Source: a virus
Lineage: Duplodnaviria; Heunggongvirae; Uroviricota; Caudoviricetes
Reading direction: 5' to 3' (one strand)
Length of the DNA stretch: 8,576 nt
Virus record (IMG/VR): IMGVR_UViG_2778261083_000006
The notes under the pieces: model-generated
What the model was told of the DNA's origin: nothing
What the model saw: the letters and a program-made list of their open reading frames with translations, nothing else
Database searches by the model: none
Shown here: positions 1-8,576 of the stretch, one piece after another
Position numbering within the stretch: the first letter of the stretch is position 1
How the letters are laid out: the number at the start of each line of letters is the position of its first letter
Made by a program: the position numbers and the translations under genes

Positions 1-981
1 TTATAACGTCACTCCGCCTTTTAGTGGATTCAGAGCGACGGCATTTTGCAGATAGTCAGGCGCAAGGTGCGCATAGGCCATCGTCTGCTGAATGCTCGCA
101 TGTCCCAGAATCTGTTGCAGTGCGATTATATTGCCCCCATTCATCATGAAATGGCTTGCGAATGTATGCCGCAGGATGTGGGTTGCCTGATTGGGTGGTA
201 TATCAGGTTTCACTCTGCGTAAAATCCCGCAAAATTTCTCATAATCAACTTTGAATAATTTGGCGCTGGCCTCCTCTTTAACTTTTTTCTCCAGTTCCTC
301 AGAAATCGGCACGGTTCGCTTTTTACCGTTTTTGGTTTTCAGGAAGGTAACCCTGCAATTTGTAATCTGTGCTGGTTTTAGCGTGGCAACTTCCGTCCAT
401 CTTCCTCCAGTGCTCAGACATAAAAGCGCGACAAGTAAGTCATCACCAGCCAAAACATTTAACAGTTTTTCGATTTCTGCTTTTTCCAGGAACGTCATTT
501 CAGGGTTGGCCTCCGCCAGTGGCGGCAGTCCGTGAATTGGGTGTTGCCCGGAAAATTCATCCAATTGAATTAATTTTGTGAACATGCCGGATAATCGGTA
601 CATGTCACGGTTTATCGTTGCGGCACTGATACCATCACGTAGTCGCATGGAACGATAATCCATCAAAGCCCTTTTGCTCATCCTGCTCACTGGTATATCA
701 CCTATGCCGCTGATGGTTTTGAGTAGATGATTAAACTCTTTTGTTCCATGCTCGTGGTTTTGCCCGTGATATTTCCACCAGATGTCCAGCAACTCACTCA
801 AAGTCCGGCGGTCTGCTCGCTGGCCTCCCCATTCTTTCTGACTGGCATTGGCGATTGTGTATCGCTCAAATGCTAGTGCTTCAGCTTTTCTTTCGAATTT
901 CCTGCGGATGCGTTTTCCGTCGCGACCGCGAGGTCTAATGTCCACTTCATAGCGACCATCATCGAGCTTCTTAATTGCCAT
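1..981 (-). CDS. int: Tyrosine site-specific integrase (P2 Int-like)
   Basis: C-terminal catalytic signature ...HILRHTFASHF...LGHASIQQTMAYAHL... (R, H-x-x-R, catalytic Y) typical of phage tyrosine recombinases. Start chosen at ATG 979-981 (MAIKKLDDGRYEV...) because it is preceded by GGAGGG with a 7-nt spacer; the track ORF start at 1011 (MVNTAPEGFL...) has no Shine-Dalgarno. Confidence 0.9.
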   Translation of the reverse strand: MAIKKLDDGRYEVDIRPRGRDGKRIRRKFERKAEALAFERYTIANASQKEWGGQRADRRTLSELLDIWWKYHGQNHEHGTKEFNHLLKTISGIGDIPVSRMSKRALMDYRSMRLRDGISAATINRDMYRLSGMFTKLIQLDEFSGQHPIHGLPPLAEANPEMTFLEKAEIEKLLNVLAGDDLLVALLCLSTGGRWTEVATLKPAQITNCRVTFLKTKNGKKRTVPISEELEKKVKEEASAKLFKVDYEKFCGILRRVKPDIPPNQATHILRHTFASHFMMNGGNIIALQQILGHASIQQTMAYAHLAPDYLQNAVALNPLKGGVTL

Positions 982-1050
982 AAGAAAGCCCTCCGGCGCT
1001 GTATTCACCATCTTGGTAGCAAATGGTGAAAATGTAATCTTTATATAGAG

Positions 1051-3237: not shown

Positions 3238-3509
3238 GTATTCGTATTGAAATTGGCGAACGTTATGTCGTTACCAGTGACAGCTTTCAGTTTATTCTCC
3301 ACGAGAAAAAGAGAGCGGAAAGCGGTAAAAACGCCGGTCAGGAATGGCTGGCAGTGGTTGGTTATTACCCGAAATTAAGCCAGCTCGTTTCCGGCCTGAT
3401 GCATCACGATATTCTGACCGGAAGCGCAAAGTCTTTTGCTGATTTAAACGCGCAGGTTGAGCAACTCAGCAGGCGTTGTTCAGAGGCTTTTGGCTCATAT
3501 GGCCGTTAA
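3234..3509 (+). CDS. Hypothetical early protein (P2 orf83 position), 91 aa
   Basis: ATGA overlap with the upstream stop; its 3' end overlaps the A start by 11 nt. Confidence 0.55.
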   Translation: MSIRIEIGERYVVTSDSFQFILHEKKRAESGKNAGQEWLAVVGYYPKLSQLVSGLMHHDILTGSAKSFADLNAQVEQLSRRCSEAFGSYGR

Positions 3510-5784
3510 AGCCTCCGGGCGTTTTGTCCCTCCGTCAGCATTTGCCGCAGGCACCGGTAAGGCGTTTACCGGTGCTTATGCATGGAACGCGCCACGCGAG
3601 GCCGTCGGGCGGGAAAGACCCCTTACACGTGACGAGATGCGTCAGGTGCAAGGTGTTTTATCCACGATTAACCGCCTGCCTTACTTTTTGCGCTCGCTGT
3701 TTACTTCACGCTATGACTACATCCGGCGCAATAAAAGCCCGGTGCACGGGTTTTATTTCCTCACATCCACTTTTCAGCGTCGTTTATGGCCGCGCATTGA
3801 GCGTGTGAATCAGCGCCATGAAATGAACACCGACGCGTCGTTGCTGTTTCTGGCAGAGCGCGACCAGTATGCGCGCCTGCCGGGGATGAATGACAAGGAG
3901 CTGAAAAAGTTTGCCGCCCGAATCTCATCGCAGCTTTTCATGATGTATGAGGAACTCTGCGATGCCTGGGTGGATGCGCATGGCGAAAAAGAATCGCTGT
4001 TTACGGATGAGGCGCAGGCTCACCTGTATGGTCATGTTGCTGGCGCTGCACGTGCTTTCAATATTTCCCCGCTTTACTGGAGAAAATACCGTAAAGGGCA
4101 GATGACCACGAGGCAGGCATATTCTGCCATTGCCCGCCTGTTTAACGATGAGTGGTGGATTAGTCAGCTTAAAGGCCAGCGTATGCGCTGGCATGAGGCG
4201 TTACTGATTGCTGTCGGGGAGGTCAATAAAGACCGTTCACCTTATGCCAGTAAACATGCCATTCGTGATGTGCGTGCGCGCCGCCAGGCAAATCTGGAAT
4301 TTCTTAAATCGTGTGACCTTGAAAACAGGGAAACCGGCGAGCGCATCGACCTTATCAGTAAGGTGATGGGCAGTATTTCTAATCCTGAAATTCGCCGGAT
4401 GGAGCTGATGAACACCATTGCCGGTATTGAGCGTTACGCCGCCTCAGAGGGTGATGTGGGGATGTTTATCACGCTTACCGCGCCGTCAAAGTATCACCCG
4501 ACACGTCAGGTTGGAAAAGGCGAAAATAAAACCGTCCAGCTTAATCACGGCTGGAATGATGAGGCATTTAATCCAAAGGATGCGCAGCGTTATCTCTGCC
4601 GTATCTGGAGCCTGATGCGCACGGCATTCAAGGATAATGATTTACAGGTCTACGGTTTGCGTGTCGTCGAGCCACACCACGACGGAACGCCGCACTGGCA
4701 TATGATGCTTTTTTGTAATCCACGCCAGCGTAACCAGATTATCGAAATCATGCGTCGCTATGCGCTCAAAGAGGATGGCGACGAAAGAGGAGCCGCGCGA
4801 AACCGTTTTCAGGCAAAACACCTTAACCGGGGCGGTGCTGCGGGATATATCGCGAAATACATTTCAAAAAATATCGACGGCTATGCACTGGATGGTCAGC
4901 TCGATAACGATACCGGCAGACCGCTGAAAGATACTGCGGCGGCTGTTACCGCATGGGCGTCAACGTGGCGCATCCCGCAATTTAAAACGGTTGGCCTGCC
5001 GACAATGGGAGCTTACCGTGAGCTACGTAAATTGCCTCGCGGCGTCAGCATTGCTGATGAATTTGACGAACGCGTGGAGGCTGCACGCGCCGCCGCAGAC
5101 AGTGGCGATTTTGCGTTGTATATCAGCGCGCAGGGCGGGGCAAATGTCCCGCGCGATTGTCAGACTGTCAGGGTCGCCCGTAGCCCGTCGGATGAAGTTA
5201 ACGAGTACGAGGAAGAAGTCGAGAGAGTGGTCGGCATTTACGCGCCGCATCTCGGCGCGCGTCATATTCATATCACCAGAACGACGGACTGGCGCATCGT
5301 GCCGAAAGTTCCGGTCGTTGAGCCTTTGACTTTAAAAAGCGGCATCGCCGCGCCTCGGAGTCCTGTCAATAACTGTGGAAAGCTCACCGGCAGTGATACT
5401 TCGTTACCGGCTCCCACACCTTATGAACATGCCGCAGCCGTGCTTAATCTGGTTGATGACGGTGTTATCGAATGGAATGAGCCAGAGGTCGTGAGGGCGC
5501 TCAGAGGTGCATTAAAACACGAACTGAGAACACCAAATCGTCAGCAGAGAAACGGAAGCCCGTTAAAACCACATGAAATAGCGCCATCGGCCAGACTGAC
5601 CCGGTCGGAACGAACGCAAATTACCCGTATCCGCGTTGACCTTGCTCAGAACGGTATCAGGCCGCAGCGATGGGAGCTTGAGGCGCTGGCGCGTGGCGCG
5701 ACCGTAAATTATGACGGGAAAAAATTCACGTATCCGGTCGCTGATGAGTGGCCGGGATTCTCAACAGTAATGGAGTGGACATAA
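3499..5784 (+). CDS. A: Rolling-circle replication initiator / replication endonuclease (P2 gene A protein), HUH superfamily
   Basis: 761 aa from ATG 3499 (MAVKASGRF...). HUH motif H-W-H at 4693-4701 in VEPHHDGTPHWHMMLF; paired tyrosines in GYIAKYISKN at codons 450 (4846-4848) and 454 (4858-4860), the numbering of the P2 A active-site tyrosines. The track ORF from 3457 starts at an upstream TTG. Confidence 0.95.
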   Translation: MAVKASGRFVPPSAFAAGTGKAFTGAYAWNAPREAVGRERPLTRDEMRQVQGVLSTINRLPYFLRSLFTSRYDYIRRNKSPVHGFYFLTSTFQRRLWPRIERVNQRHEMNTDASLLFLAERDQYARLPGMNDKELKKFAARISSQLFMMYEELCDAWVDAHGEKESLFTDEAQAHLYGHVAGAARAFNISPLYWRKYRKGQMTTRQAYSAIARLFNDEWWISQLKGQRMRWHEALLIAVGEVNKDRSPYASKHAIRDVRARRQANLEFLKSCDLENRETGERIDLISKVMGSISNPEIRRMELMNTIAGIERYAASEGDVGMFITLTAPSKYHPTRQVGKGENKTVQLNHGWNDEAFNPKDAQRYLCRIWSLMRTAFKDNDLQVYGLRVVEPHHDGTPHWHMMLFCNPRQRNQIIEIMRRYALKEDGDERGAARNRFQAKHLNRGGAAGYIAKYISKNIDGYALDGQLDNDTGRPLKDTAAAVTAWASTWRIPQFKTVGLPTMGAYRELRKLPRGVSIADEFDERVEAARAAADSGDFALYISAQGGANVPRDCQTVRVARSPSDEVNEYEEEVERVVGIYAPHLGARHIHITRTTDWRIVPKVPVVEPLTLKSGIAAPRSPVNNCGKLTGSDTSLPAPTPYEHAAAVLNLVDDGVIEWNEPEVVRALRGALKHELRTPNRQQRNGSPLKPHEIAPSARLTRSERTQITRIRVDLAQNGIRPQRWELEALARGATVNYDGKKFTYPVADEWPGFSTVMEWT

Positions 5785-6236
5785 TGGCAAAAATTCACGA
5801 GGTAAAGCTGCACGCAAAATATTTCGACCTTGTGCTGGAAGGAAAGAAACGTGCAGAGTTCCGGAAAAATGACCGTAATTATGAGCGCGGGGACACGTTG
5901 ATTTTGTATGAATGGGTGCAGGGTGTGTATACGGGGCGAAATGTTGAAGCCCGGATAACAGATGTTACTGACCTGTCAGACTGGCTGGAAGATTATGTCT
6001 TGCTAAGTATTGAGCTGCTTAATACAGGCGCATATGAGATTGTGAACTGGAAAGAACTTAGTGAGCGTGGCCTGGTATTCAGAATTAATCATGAAATTAT
6101 GCATCAGCTCGGCCTTGCTGTTATGTATGAACCAGAGACGGGGATGTCTGGCGGGGCAATGGTTGCCACGGATGGAGCATGGAACTATTCAGATGAACAG
6201 ATGGAGCGTGCACAGCAAAACGGGTGGCTTGGATAA
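5784..6236 (+). CDS. ASCH/PUA-like (DUF3850-type) domain protein, 150 aa
   Basis: N-terminus MAKIHEVKLHAKYFDLVLEGKKRAEFRKNDRNYERGDTLILYEW fits the ASCH beta-barrel pattern (G-x-K...R...GD). ATG 5784 overlaps the A stop (TAATG) and follows GGAGTGG. The track start at 5748 is a GTG inside A. Confidence 0.65.
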   Translation: MAKIHEVKLHAKYFDLVLEGKKRAEFRKNDRNYERGDTLILYEWVQGVYTGRNVEARITDVTDLSDWLEDYVLLSIELLNTGAYEIVNWKELSERGLVFRINHEIMHQLGLAVMYEPETGMSGGAMVATDGAWNYSDEQMERAQQNGWLG

Positions 6237-6442
6237 TGCACAGAATACCAGGCGAGATACCGCACCATAAAACTAAAAATATCAAGCTGATGGCTATTGT
6301 TCAGCGTTTACAGCGGATTATGGTCAACGAAAATCTGACGCCCGATGAGCTGGTCGGGTGTGCCGAAATAGTCCGGGATAATTACGGGCGGTTTAACCAT
6401 ATCGGTCAGTCCAGAGTTGCGCCACCACAACGCAGACGATAG
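6236..6442 (+). CDS. Hypothetical small protein, 68 aa
   Basis: ATG 6236 overlaps the upstream stop (TAATG); phage-like GC; no recognisable motif. A shorter start at MAIVQRL... is possible. Confidence 0.35.
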   Translation: MHRIPGEIPHHKTKNIKLMAIVQRLQRIMVNENLTPDELVGCAEIVRDNYGRFNHIGQSRVAPPQRRR

Positions 6443-6448
6443 AGAACG

Positions 6449-6483
6449 CCGCCAGTCGTGAAACTTGTTTTCAGGGCTGGCGG
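6449..6483 (+). other. Imperfect hairpin at the boundary between phage core and low-GC cargo
   Basis: CCGCCAG (6449-6455) pairs with CTGGCGG (6477-6483); inner stem TGAAA (6459-6463) with TTTCA (6469-6473). No T-run follows, so it is not a canonical intrinsic terminator. Confidence 0.3.
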
Positions 6484-6629
6484 GGTTGAATAACGAGTGT
6501 CGCGAGGCGTTAGTTTGAGCTTACAATTAAACCTATTGAAAATTAATGAGAAGTCAATTTTATCTTTTTCTCGTTAAAGATGACCACAACTACTAAAACG
6601 TGAGAATATCAAGACTTGGCAAAATCTAG

Positions 6630-6679
6630 CTTTTCCCAACGGGGTGTTTCGCTATAATACGCGGTCGGTTTTTAGGAGG
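6630..6679 (+). promoter_or_regulatory. Candidate promoter and RBS for the methyltransferase gene
   Basis: Consensus -10 TATAAT at 6653-6658 with a weak -35 (CTTTTC, 6630-6635, 17-bp spacer); AGGAGG at 6674-6679, 5 nt before ATG 6685; 243-bp AT-rich intergenic region. Confidence 0.45.
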
Positions 6680-6684
6680 GGTCA

Positions 6685-7623
6685 ATGCCAACTGTAGTTT
6701 CACTTTTTTCTGGATGTGGTGGTTCTGATGCGGGAGTTTTGAACGCAGGTTTCAATGTGCTTATGGCAAATGATATTTTGCCTTACGCAAGGGACGTTTA
6801 CTTAGAAAACCATCCTGAAACTGACTACATTTTGGGCGATATCTCAGGGCTCCAGTCGTTCCCTTCTGCTGAGTTGCTCATCGGATGCTATCCTTGCCAA
6901 GGATTTAGTCAAGGTGGGGCAAGGAAGGCAGATAGAAAGATTAATACACTATATTTAGAGTTTGCCCGTGCTTTGAGTAAAATTAAGCCAAAAGCATTCA
7001 TTGTAGAGAATGTCTCTGGTATGGTAAGGCGTAACTTTGAGCATTTATTAAAGGATCAATTCAAAGTTTTCGAAGAAGCAGGTTATACAGTAAGCTCGCA
7101 AATTCTGAATGCGTCCCATTATGGGGTATCCCAAGATAGGAAGCGAATCTTTATCGTAGGAATACGAAAGGACTACGGTATTACATACAAATTTCCAAAA
7201 CCAACACATGGTGATGGTTTGACACCATATTCCACAATTCGTGATGCTATTGGGCATATGCCTGTTTGGCCTGTTGGCGAGTTTTATGACGCCGATTTTC
7301 ATTGGTATTATCTATCGCGAAACCGTAGGCAAGATTGGGATCAGATATCTAAAACAATTGTTGCAAATCCTAGACATATGCCTCTACATCCAATAAGTCC
7401 AACATTAGAAAAATTGGGACCTGATAAGTGGCAATTTACTTCGGATGCACCAGCTCGTAGGTTTAGCTATCGAGAGGCTGCTATTTTACAAGGTTTTGGG
7501 GATTTAATTTTCCCAGAAACTGAACGGGCTTCTATTAATATGAAATATACTGTGGTAGGTAATGCAGTACCGCCTCCATTGTTTGAGGCGGTTGCTAGAA
7601 ACCTTCCAGATTTATGGGATTAA
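6685..7623 (+). CDS. DNA (cytosine-5)-methyltransferase
   Basis: Motif I FSGCGG (6703-6720); catalytic P-C in GCYPCQGFSQGG (Pro-Cys at 6892-6897); motif VI FIVENVSGM; motif VIII SQDRKRIFIVG; C-terminal REAAILQGF and VVGNAVPPPLF. 312 aa, about 40% GC. Confidence 0.93.
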   Translation: MPTVVSLFSGCGGSDAGVLNAGFNVLMANDILPYARDVYLENHPETDYILGDISGLQSFPSAELLIGCYPCQGFSQGGARKADRKINTLYLEFARALSKIKPKAFIVENVSGMVRRNFEHLLKDQFKVFEEAGYTVSSQILNASHYGVSQDRKRIFIVGIRKDYGITYKFPKPTHGDGLTPYSTIRDAIGHMPVWPVGEFYDADFHWYYLSRNRRQDWDQISKTIVANPRHMPLHPISPTLEKLGPDKWQFTSDAPARRFSYREAAILQGFGDLIFPETERASINMKYTVVGNAVPPPLFEAVARNLPDLWD

Positions 7624-8525
7624 GCAGCGATCGCGCTGGAAGGATCAAGGATGATATCTAGATAGCTAATATTTTGACTGTGATCAATATTATCAGATGC
7701 TCTGGTTAAATTGATTAATCTTAGGCGATCAACAAAAATAGCATCGCCTAACTTATTTTTATGCGCCCACTCACCATCTATCCATCGTAGATCTTGAGGT
7801 AAGAAATAATAAGTTGCCCATCGGTGAGCTACGGGGAATTTACTGTAGAGCATCGCAGGTGAGGCCTCAAGCTGCTTCGCTTCCCACTCTTCTTGAGAAC
7901 AGCCACACTGAACAAAAGAAATAGGGATGGCATCTCGTTGATCTCCCATTGGATGCCAGGCAATTATGTCAAGGCCTCCGTCACCACTATTTCCTCGACT
8001 GAAATCTCGTTCTTTGAAGTTCGCTGTGCAACGGATATCGGAAGCAATACTCTTAAATTTATTATATAGAGTTCCAGTGTAAGGGGCCGCTTGACCACCA
8101 GAAGCCCAGCATGCTTTTATTATGCTACCGCTAGGCATTAGGCTTTCAAAAATAGGTAAACTAATTAGTTCAAAACTGCGCGTTATCTCTCTTCTGCTCA
8201 TTATGTTGACATATTTTATGTTAGCACAGATTAGTAAAGCTAAATATAGTCTTTCTAAATGTTCCAGTGGCTTTTCTGATATATCACGTAACTCTACAGT
8301 ATCGTTGTCTTCTGATAAAGTAAAAGGGTAACTATCCCCAAATAAATCAATGCGTTGTCGTATGAAGCCTATCGCATAGCTCCACTTTCTGTCAGTATAT
8401 GCTCGACTAACACTTCGTTTTGTTCTCTTGCGTACAGGCGTATCATTTTCATCATCAACATCATAAACGCCCTCTTCTTCTGCTTCATCTGTTTCAGCTA
8501 GGGAAGGTGCGAATAAGCAGGTCAT
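7620..8525 (-). CDS. Unknown protein convergent with the methyltransferase; candidate restriction endonuclease or other defence effector; may be 5'-partial
   Basis: At least 301 codons; its stop overlaps the methyltransferase stop by 4 bp (7620-7623); about 33-38% GC. The frame has no stop between ATG 8523-8525 and the window end at 8576, so the true start may lie outside the window. No motif I can assign confidently; a weak PD-(D/E)xK-like pattern (GLDIIAW ... EAK) is speculative. Confidence 0.7.
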   Translation of the reverse strand: MTCLFAPSLAETDEAEEEGVYDVDDENDTPVRKRTKRSVSRAYTDRKWSYAIGFIRQRIDLFGDSYPFTLSEDNDTVELRDISEKPLEHLERLYLALLICANIKYVNIMSRREITRSFELISLPIFESLMPSGSIIKACWASGGQAAPYTGTLYNKFKSIASDIRCTANFKERDFSRGNSGDGGLDIIAWHPMGDQRDAIPISFVQCGCSQEEWEAKQLEASPAMLYSKFPVAHRWATYYFLPQDLRWIDGEWAHKNKLGDAIFVDRLRLINLTRASDNIDHSQNISYLDIILDPSSAIAA

Positions 8526-8576
8526 TTCTTCCCAAGTTGACTCGCTGATTAAAATTTCGCGGATCTGGGCCGATTT

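Follow-up and report, generated by a model that had tools for sequence, protein, structure and literature searches.

The DNA analysed here is a stretch of 8,576 nucleotides from a virus (Caudoviricetes; IMG/VR record IMGVR_UViG_2778261083_000006), referred to as the window, which represents the early-gene arm of a P2-like prophage of the Wphi type. At its end, between positions 6,685 and 8,576, a DNA methyltransferase gene faces a convergent gene that belongs to the gp96 family of phage Wphi. A reading made from the sequence only had described these two genes as a low-GC module in the accessory hotspot downstream of gene A, with the layout of a classic type II restriction-modification system and a partner that might be a divergent restriction endonuclease. 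The observation was partly confirmed, as the module is real but the partner reading frame is a chimera truncated by an insertion sequence (IS), and the interpretation was partly supported. The locus probably represents a defence cassette of three genes, carried by P2-like prophages of the Wphi type and similar to a restriction-modification system, in which a C5-cytosine methyltransferase accompanies a two-protein restriction module (gp98 and gp96), and which has decayed locally. The following features were identified at the locus.

6674..6679, plus strand: ribosome-binding site AGGAGG, 5 nt before the methylase ATG (direct sequence reading)
6685..7623, plus strand: C5-cytosine DNA methyltransferase, homologue of Wphi Mth, apparently intact (312 amino acids; PF00145)
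7620-8525, minus strand: open reading frame of 301 amino acids, convergent to the methylase, an IS-gp96 chimera
7620..8501, minus strand: 3' remnant of a gp96-family gene, codons 49-341 plus stop, with the whole predicted PD-(D/E)xK domain kept
8498..8501, no strand: CTAG at which the IS inserted; E. coli 98206 has a copy of it on either side of the element
8502..8576, no strand: terminal 75 nt of an IS5-family element (ISKpn26-like); divergence from Wphi starts at 8502

Both open reading frames were found as described earlier. Both stop codons lie within the same four bases, TTAA at 7620-7623, and this convergent layout with a 4-bp stop overlap is kept in relatives. The low GC content was also seen: the methylase has 0.409, the partner reading frame 0.407 and gene A 0.537. 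The assignment to the P2 hotspot held, as gene A lies upstream and the portal gene lies downstream in the near-identical chromosome of E. coli 98206; this tin/old hotspot of P2-like phages holds diverse defence systems (PMC9519451). In a DNA search the module was detected at 99.9-100% identity in Wphi (mth, gp96) and in 104 complete E. coli genomes. While thousands of E. coli records matched part of the query, only these 104 covered at least 80% of it, and among 5426 complete E. coli genomes the cassette at an identity of at least 99% is thus present in about 2%. Identity to the window ends at position 8501 in all but one of the Wphi and E. coli matches. E. coli 98206 matches the window through 8576; its identity (99.9%) is claimed for 6443-8576 only, and a simple offset comparison of the whole window with this genome gave many mismatches, probably caused by upstream indels.

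Alignment to Wphi revealed that the window is collinear up to 8501 and departs after ...CAGCTAG. Past this point it reads GGAAGGTGCGAATAAG..., an IS5-family terminal repeat, and the post-junction sequence GGAAGGTGCGAATAAGCAGG... corresponds to the end of an IS5-family element. Other phage records contain IS copies that match the last 82 nt (8495-8576), a segment spanning the junction. A full element of 1199 bp occupies this site in E. coli 98206 (L002); it is flanked by the CTAG duplication and carries an annotated IS5-like ISKpn26 transposase, so that the features of the IS5 family (ISKpn26) are all found: a terminal inverted repeat GGAAGGTGCGAA..., a 4-bp CTAG duplication, a length of about 1.2 kb and a DDE transposase. 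The IS contributes the ATG at 8523-8525 and the seven codons after it (MTCLFAPS), and the remainder of the window reading frame equals residues 49-341 of the 341-residue gp96. Owing to the IS insertion, the 301-residue reading frame is truncated and chimeric and represents no intact gene. The missing residues 1-48, a conserved part of the protein, contain D18 and E21, which are invariant, and P9, which is nearly so. The suggestion that the module may continue past the window end was borne out, since beyond the IS the chromosome of E. coli 98206 continues with the 5' part of gp96, an intact ParB-like gene (gp98) and then the portal gene.

As the insertion leaves gp96 without its N-terminus and separates it from gp98 and the operon promoter, the local copy is probably restriction-dead. 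Most likely a still-active methylase remains beside a nuclease remnant that is dead or crippled, a state typical of decaying restriction systems. The ISKpn26 transposase is co-directional with the gp96 remnant (E. coli 98206, L002), and read-through from the transposase into the remnant is therefore possible. In the region 6200-8576 no promoters or terminators above shuffled expectation and no meaningful repeats were detected, and a promoter scan of 6443-6684 gave no site above chance; therefore, the methylase promoter was not located. A second, independent IS5 insertion was found near gp96 codon 148 in E. coli FXCREC123 and JXZ9A32M (L083, L086), in a decayed prophage in which parts of gene A and of the portal gene are also gone and the methylase is kept. 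As IS5-family elements have inserted into gp96 repeatedly and independently with retention of the methylase, the nuclease encoded by gp96 appears to be costly to keep.

The gp98 gene lies outside the window and was read from Wphi and relatives. In Wphi as well as in the IS-bearing E. coli 98206, the C5-methylase is convergent to a gp98-gp96 operon. The intact triad occupies 29419-32460 in Wphi and 4338703-4341750 in E. coli W (NC_017635). Exact-protein look-ups of three distant gp96 homologues all returned a ParB_N-like gene and a gp96-like gene, followed by a convergent C5-methylase. These triads are located in Enterobacter P2-like prophages, in the same hotspot, and at non-phage chromosomal sites in Methylomonas and Ramlibacter, there together with Vsr. 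A profile scan of one genome per GTDB species yielded 73 gp96 loci, whose open reading frames were called and scanned with hidden Markov models. The loci span Pseudomonadota, Campylobacterota, Bacteroidota, Chloroflexota, Acidobacteriota, Armatimonadota and Verrucomicrobiota. A gp98 relative is encoded directly upstream of gp96 on the same strand, with gaps or overlaps of a few bases, in 69 of the 73; three of the remaining four are at contig ends and the fourth (L046) has a truncated gp96. The module is thus made up of three genes and not of two as had been assumed. A C5-methylase was present in the flanks of 61 loci, usually in convergent orientation and with stops that overlap or abut. The Proteobacteria have this convergent order, in many cases with the stop overlap of the window, and in the other phyla the methylase points the same way as the pair; Vsr accompanies it in about 12 loci. 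Distant gp96 members adjoin GmrSD, Mrr/Mrr_cat, HerA, Uma2 and HEPN genes, which is a defence-island context. A literature search on PD-λ-5, PDC-M38, Wphi restriction, ParB-like CTP (cytidine triphosphate) defence and ATCC 9637 did not find a description of the triad.

In the Wphi deposit (L001 5178-7413), gp96 and gp98 are 369 and 401 amino acids long and their genes overlap by 80 bp. According to the family alignments, the true gp96 has 341 and the true gp98 357 amino acids, so the Wphi GenBank starts look too long. With the shorter starts the overlap is gone, and about 5 nt separate the stop of gp98 from the ATG of gp96.

Two further arrangements were observed. The Pseudomonas P2-like phage vB_PaeM-D14A (L085 3498-6465) carries the full triad at a different genome position. 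In Ramlibacter, Pelomonas and a metagenome-assembled genome of Burkholderiales (L003 7373-11589, L027, L034) the pair is followed by a convergent operon, which encodes a protein of about 1040 amino acids with a weak N6-methylase-like motif and a distant C5-methylase, 41-44% identical.

These loci bear on the layout originally proposed, a classic two-gene type II system, in which the convergent partner alone would act as a sequence-specific endonuclease and the ParB-like gene would be an unrelated neighbour. Such a system would account for the tightly packed convergent genes with overlapping stops, for a full-length methylase resembling M.HaeIII with intact catalytic motifs, for the frequent proximity of Vsr and for the restriction-endonuclease-like fold predicted for the partner. 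However, the ParB-like gene precedes the partner in essentially every relative, across several phyla and far more constantly than expected for a chance neighbour, the two genes are closely spaced in Wphi, and in some loci the pair travels with dnd genes and no methylase. On the restriction side stands a conserved operon of two genes, one of them for a nucleotide-binding-type ParB-like protein, and gp96 matches none of the known type II endonuclease families. As far as comparative genomics can tell, a single endonuclease gene does not appear to be sufficient, given the 69 of 73 loci with gp98. This extra conserved subunit led us to reject the classic type II assignment, which we regard as improbable.

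The predicted fold of gp98 comprises a ParB/KorB-like (ParB/sulfiredoxin-fold) nucleotide-binding domain and a KorB/Spo0J-like helix-turn-helix. Its invariant EGNRRLAA aligns with the GERRFRAA box of Spo0J, and an NPR motif is invariant too; we take NPR and EGNRR to be the ParB nucleotide-phosphate-binding motifs. Residues 45-195 match 24 PADLOC PD-Lambda-5_A models (best 3.2e-24) at profile positions 1 to about 160 of 440-500, and the PADLOC candidate model PDC-M38A overlaps gp98. The match to Pfam ParB_N was marginal (E=0.026, under the curated cut-off). In comparison with the ParB, KorB and Spo0J clamps, gp98 shows only this marginal sequence match, has Asn in place of the box Glu and possesses a different helical domain in its C-terminal half, and its genomic role is defence instead of partition. 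The acid-Gly-amide-x-Arg pattern of gp98 recalls the DGQQR nucleoside triphosphatase (NTPase) motif of DndI (PMC11662687). A lone gp98-like gene with 34% identity is present in the hotspot of Yersinia phage L-413C (L084 207-1199), without gp96 or methylase.

The partner had been said to have no recognisable motif, and indeed neither the window reading frame nor full-length Wphi gp96 matched Pfam, PADLOC or NCBIfam. It is nevertheless a real gene, since 267 homologous clusters were recovered in a word-indexed search. At 50% identity and E <=1e-3 the gp96 family comprises 1536 representatives from many phyla, and the 150 best relatives are all stand-alone proteins of about 300-380 amino acids. 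In PHROGs only unnamed families were found (phrog_3984 and phrog_3694). Neither the single gp96 sequence nor the first family profile gave a meaningful match to PDB sequences, and a Pfam scan of 46 diverse gp96 members detected no nuclease family and no Mrr_cat match.

The earlier call for a nuclease-fold search of the partner was answered in part by a structural model. The AlphaFold2 model of gp96 (pLDDT 90.3, pTM 0.90) has a restriction-endonuclease-like PD-(D/E)xK fold with the alpha-beta-beta-beta-alpha-beta core, but Pfam returned nothing and Foldseek of the model versus PDB was not significant, and support for a nuclease fold is moderate for the latter reason. With a profile of 46 members (25-45% identity), the only near-match in PDB was MspJI (E=0.049): the stretch sGDGGlD...aFaQCaC of the gp96 profile aligns with SGDGGVD...GQAKC of MspJI, which we take to be the D...QxK catalytic motif of MspJI. 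Versus an Mrr_cat protein, the profile matched over 20 columns across the GDGGID stretch with a probability of 25%. E159, D222 and D226 are found in all of the 25-45% identical members, and Q246 and K257 in nearly all. The secondary structure of the model places E159 on the first core helix, D222 and D226 ahead of strand 227-230, Q246 at the end of strand 241-247 and K257 on the next helix. The D...(E/Q)xK motif is incomplete, as D226 (and D222) and Q246 are conserved and the position of the Lys is occupied by Gly or Ala; that K257 compensates for the missing Lys is a guess based on the model. We infer that gp96 is a predicted Mrr/MspJI-type nuclease with E159, D222/D226, Q246 and K257 as candidate residues. 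The suggestion that the partner is a divergent restriction endonuclease agrees with the predicted fold, the replaced Lys being a caveat for catalysis. Gp96 further differs from Mrr and MspJI in having no SRA-like or other known modification-reading domain, and whereas those enzymes cut modified DNA, this module is linked to a modification enzyme.

The plus-strand gene was identified as a DNA methyltransferase, in agreement with the first assignment (Pfam PF00145, DNA_methylase, 9.9e-62; TIGR00675, 1.8e-54). By direct reading, the motifs FSGCGG, PCQGFS, ENV, QDRKR and GNAVPP (motifs I, IV, VI, VIII and X) are intact, and the protein is 100% identical to the Wphi methylase across 312 amino acids. 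The nearest solved structure is M.HaeIII (1.6e-48), which recognises GGCC, with a match over residues 4-307 including the target-recognition region. From this resemblance, the only basis available, GGCC or a related site is suggested as the target of the methylase. Across Proteobacteria the methylase remains 66-74% identical while gp96 drops to 30-35%. The best PADLOC model for the methylase was DruM2 of Druantia (1e-110). Druantia type II was rejected, as the neighbours are gp96, gp98 and the portal gene, no large DruE-type helicase is present and only the methylase model scores; such methylase-only DruM2 matches can mislead automated defence annotation.

In 12 of the 73 loci no C5-methylase was detected in the flanks. 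In seven of these, dndCDE or dndBCDE adjoins the gp98-gp96 pair (L077, L080, L081, L070, L072, L074 and L079, from Salinibius, Marinomonas, Thalassotalea, Arcobacteraceae, Helicobacteraceae and others), and the other five are mostly contig-limited. The dnd-linked loci are among the most divergent gp96 members. In L081, Pfam identified DndB (3.8e-129) and DndE (9.9e-30), and DndC is represented by PAPS_reduct and DndD by AAA_23. A GmrSD/DndI-like gene is located just upstream in L072 and L079, and in L072 an HEPN_Swt1 gene just downstream as well.

A swap of the pair was found in E. coli O145:H28 RM12581 (L082 5001-8037). In the same P2 hotspot, this strain encodes a methylase that is 98% identical in protein sequence to that of the window, whereas its gp96-like and gp98-like proteins are only 25% and 32% identical to Wphi gp96 and gp98; the arrangement also occurs in phages vB_EcoM-12474II-V. 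Judged from these sequences, O145:H28 prophages have the same methylase with the restriction pair swapped.

The pair thus travels with one or another DNA-modification module, which is the strongest argument that gp98 and gp96 are the restriction half of a modification-based defence. In the three-gene cassette that we favour, the HaeIII-like C5-methylase would mark host and prophage DNA, gp98 would bind DNA and discriminate marked from unmarked DNA via a nucleotide-dependent switch, and gp96 would cut DNA without the mark via its Mrr/MspJI-type catalytic domain. The gp98-gp96 module is portable, being combined mostly with a C5-methylase and in a divergent branch with dnd phosphorothioation genes. 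The local ISKpn26 insertion at codon 49 separates gp96 from gp98 and from its own start.

Several points weigh against this proposal. Gene linkage and fold predictions are the basis on which restriction, protection by the methylase and a contact between gp98 and gp96 are proposed. Gly or Ala takes the place of the motif Lys throughout the family, and judged from the alignment gp96 could be a non-catalytic domain. With Asn in place of the Glu of the GERR box, gp98 may also differ from ParB in its nucleotide chemistry. Finally, the swapped pairs fit poorly with a restriction enzyme that co-evolves with its cognate site. Because the family uses 5-methylcytosine (5mC) or phosphorothioate partners, and because methylases 98% identical pair with gp96 and gp98 proteins as divergent as those of O145:H28, the methylase being more conserved than gp96, the mechanism is suggested to go beyond simple steric blocking at a cognate site.

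The same data bring in mark sensing of the SspE/DndI type. Mechanistically, SspE and DndI come closest; these proteins join a ParB-superfamily NTPase to an HNH nuclease and sense phosphorothioate marks (PMC11662687). By analogy, the pair would scan DNA, and 5mC or phosphorothioate marks would switch nucleotide hydrolysis and DNA binding, thereby regulating the nuclease instead of sterically protecting the site. The link of one pair family to two chemically different marks, the occurrence of one methylase with two very different pair alleles, the ParB-like fold common to SspE, DndI and BrxU (PMC11662687) and the resemblance of E-G-N-R-R in gp98 to the D-G-Q-Q-R NTPase motif of DndI speak for this mechanism, which we consider unlikely but worth keeping in mind. 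SspE, DndI, GmrSD and BrxU share with the cassette a ParB-superfamily nucleotide-binding domain and a nuclease that work with a DNA-modification module, and one gp98-gp96 branch adjoins dndBCDE as DndI does. Identity with GmrSD, SspE or DndI was rejected, as no fusion of DUF262 (DGQQR NTPase) to a DUF1524 HNH domain is present, the architecture is split and the nuclease fold is another one.

Extending the favoured cassette, gp98 and gp96 may tentatively be regarded as a new nucleotide-dependent restriction class, in which a nucleotide-gated ParB/KorB-like clamp would load on DNA or slide along it, read the mark, mostly 5-methylcytosine and in the sister branch phosphorothioate, and license a separate Mrr-like nuclease. 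If self and non-self were read by the scanning subunit, this would explain how one methylase can serve pairs that are 25-32% identical.

PD-λ-5 is the closest validated relative. This system of E. coli ECOR7 consists of a ParB/HEPN protein and a methyltransferase and was broadly protective in experiments (Vassallo et al. 2022; PMC9519451); its authors interpret it as a compact system similar to restriction-modification, and their cloning host lacked the mrr region (PMC9519451). Like PD-λ-5, the cassette pairs a ParB-N-like protein with a DNA methyltransferase. However, PD-λ-5 has two genes with HEPN fused to the ParB domain, whereas this module has three; gp98 matches the ParB part only, and a separate PD-(D/E)xK-like protein, for which PADLOC gave no match, takes the place of the fused effector. 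An identification as PD-λ-5 was rejected for the lack of an HEPN domain, the three genes and the unmatched effector.

It was further considered whether the methylase is an orphan or anti-restriction enzyme, with gp98 and gp96 serving prophage maintenance, partition or replication, or forming an abortive-infection (Abi) or addiction module unrelated to the mark. The resemblance of gp98 to the partition and repressor proteins ParB and KorB, the lone gp98-like gene kept by Yersinia phage L-413C and the designation of PD-λ-5 as 'RM+Abi' by its authors (PMC9519451; RM, restriction-modification) would be in line with such roles. On the other hand, the triad also occurs in the chromosomal non-phage contexts of Methylomonas and Ramlibacter, the alternative partner dnd is again a DNA-modification system, the neighbours in distant genomes are defence genes and the gp96 model has a fold resembling restriction endonucleases, which together make this the least probable of the explanations weighed here.

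Restriction of phage lambda by E. coli W and by Wphi lysogens was reportedly described in 1967 by Kerszman and Glover. Wphi lysogeny may itself confer this W-specific restriction and modification of λ. If it does, the cassette would be the obvious candidate and may be the long-unassigned genetic basis of the restriction.

The P2 hotspot is a proven defence reservoir, yet the cassette is annotated there merely as 'methyltransferase + hypothetical + ParB N-terminal domain protein'. As a whole it is recognised by neither PADLOC 2.0 nor Pfam nor NCBIfam, although the methylase and the N-terminus of gp98 (PD-λ-5 models) do match. If the proposal is true, it describes a restriction architecture that couples a ParB-type nucleotide switch to a PD-(D/E)xK nuclease, and the use of either 5mC or phosphorothioate would link methylation-based and sulfur-based restriction mechanistically. 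Lysogens with an intact cassette should restrict incoming DNA and phages, while IS-bearing lysogens should carry an orphan 5mC methylase, with an altered methylome and DNA open to attack by McrBC-type enzymes. We infer, from gene linkage and fold prediction, a widespread defence architecture of which the local copy is broken.

The remainder of the window is occupied by early genes of the prophage.

1-1011, minus strand: integrase
further genes of this arm: C repressor, cox and small early genes
3457..5784, plus strand: P2-type replication gene A (Pfam Phage_GPA, 5.9e-123), the upstream border of the hotspot
5748-6236, plus strand: open reading frame with two domains (DUF3850/ASCH and DUF7415), at the position of orf91

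The start region of the last reading frame overlaps the end of gene A. Its product has 162 amino acids by mechanical calling and 150 amino acids as annotated in E. coli 98206, and orf91 of Wphi encodes 93 amino acids.

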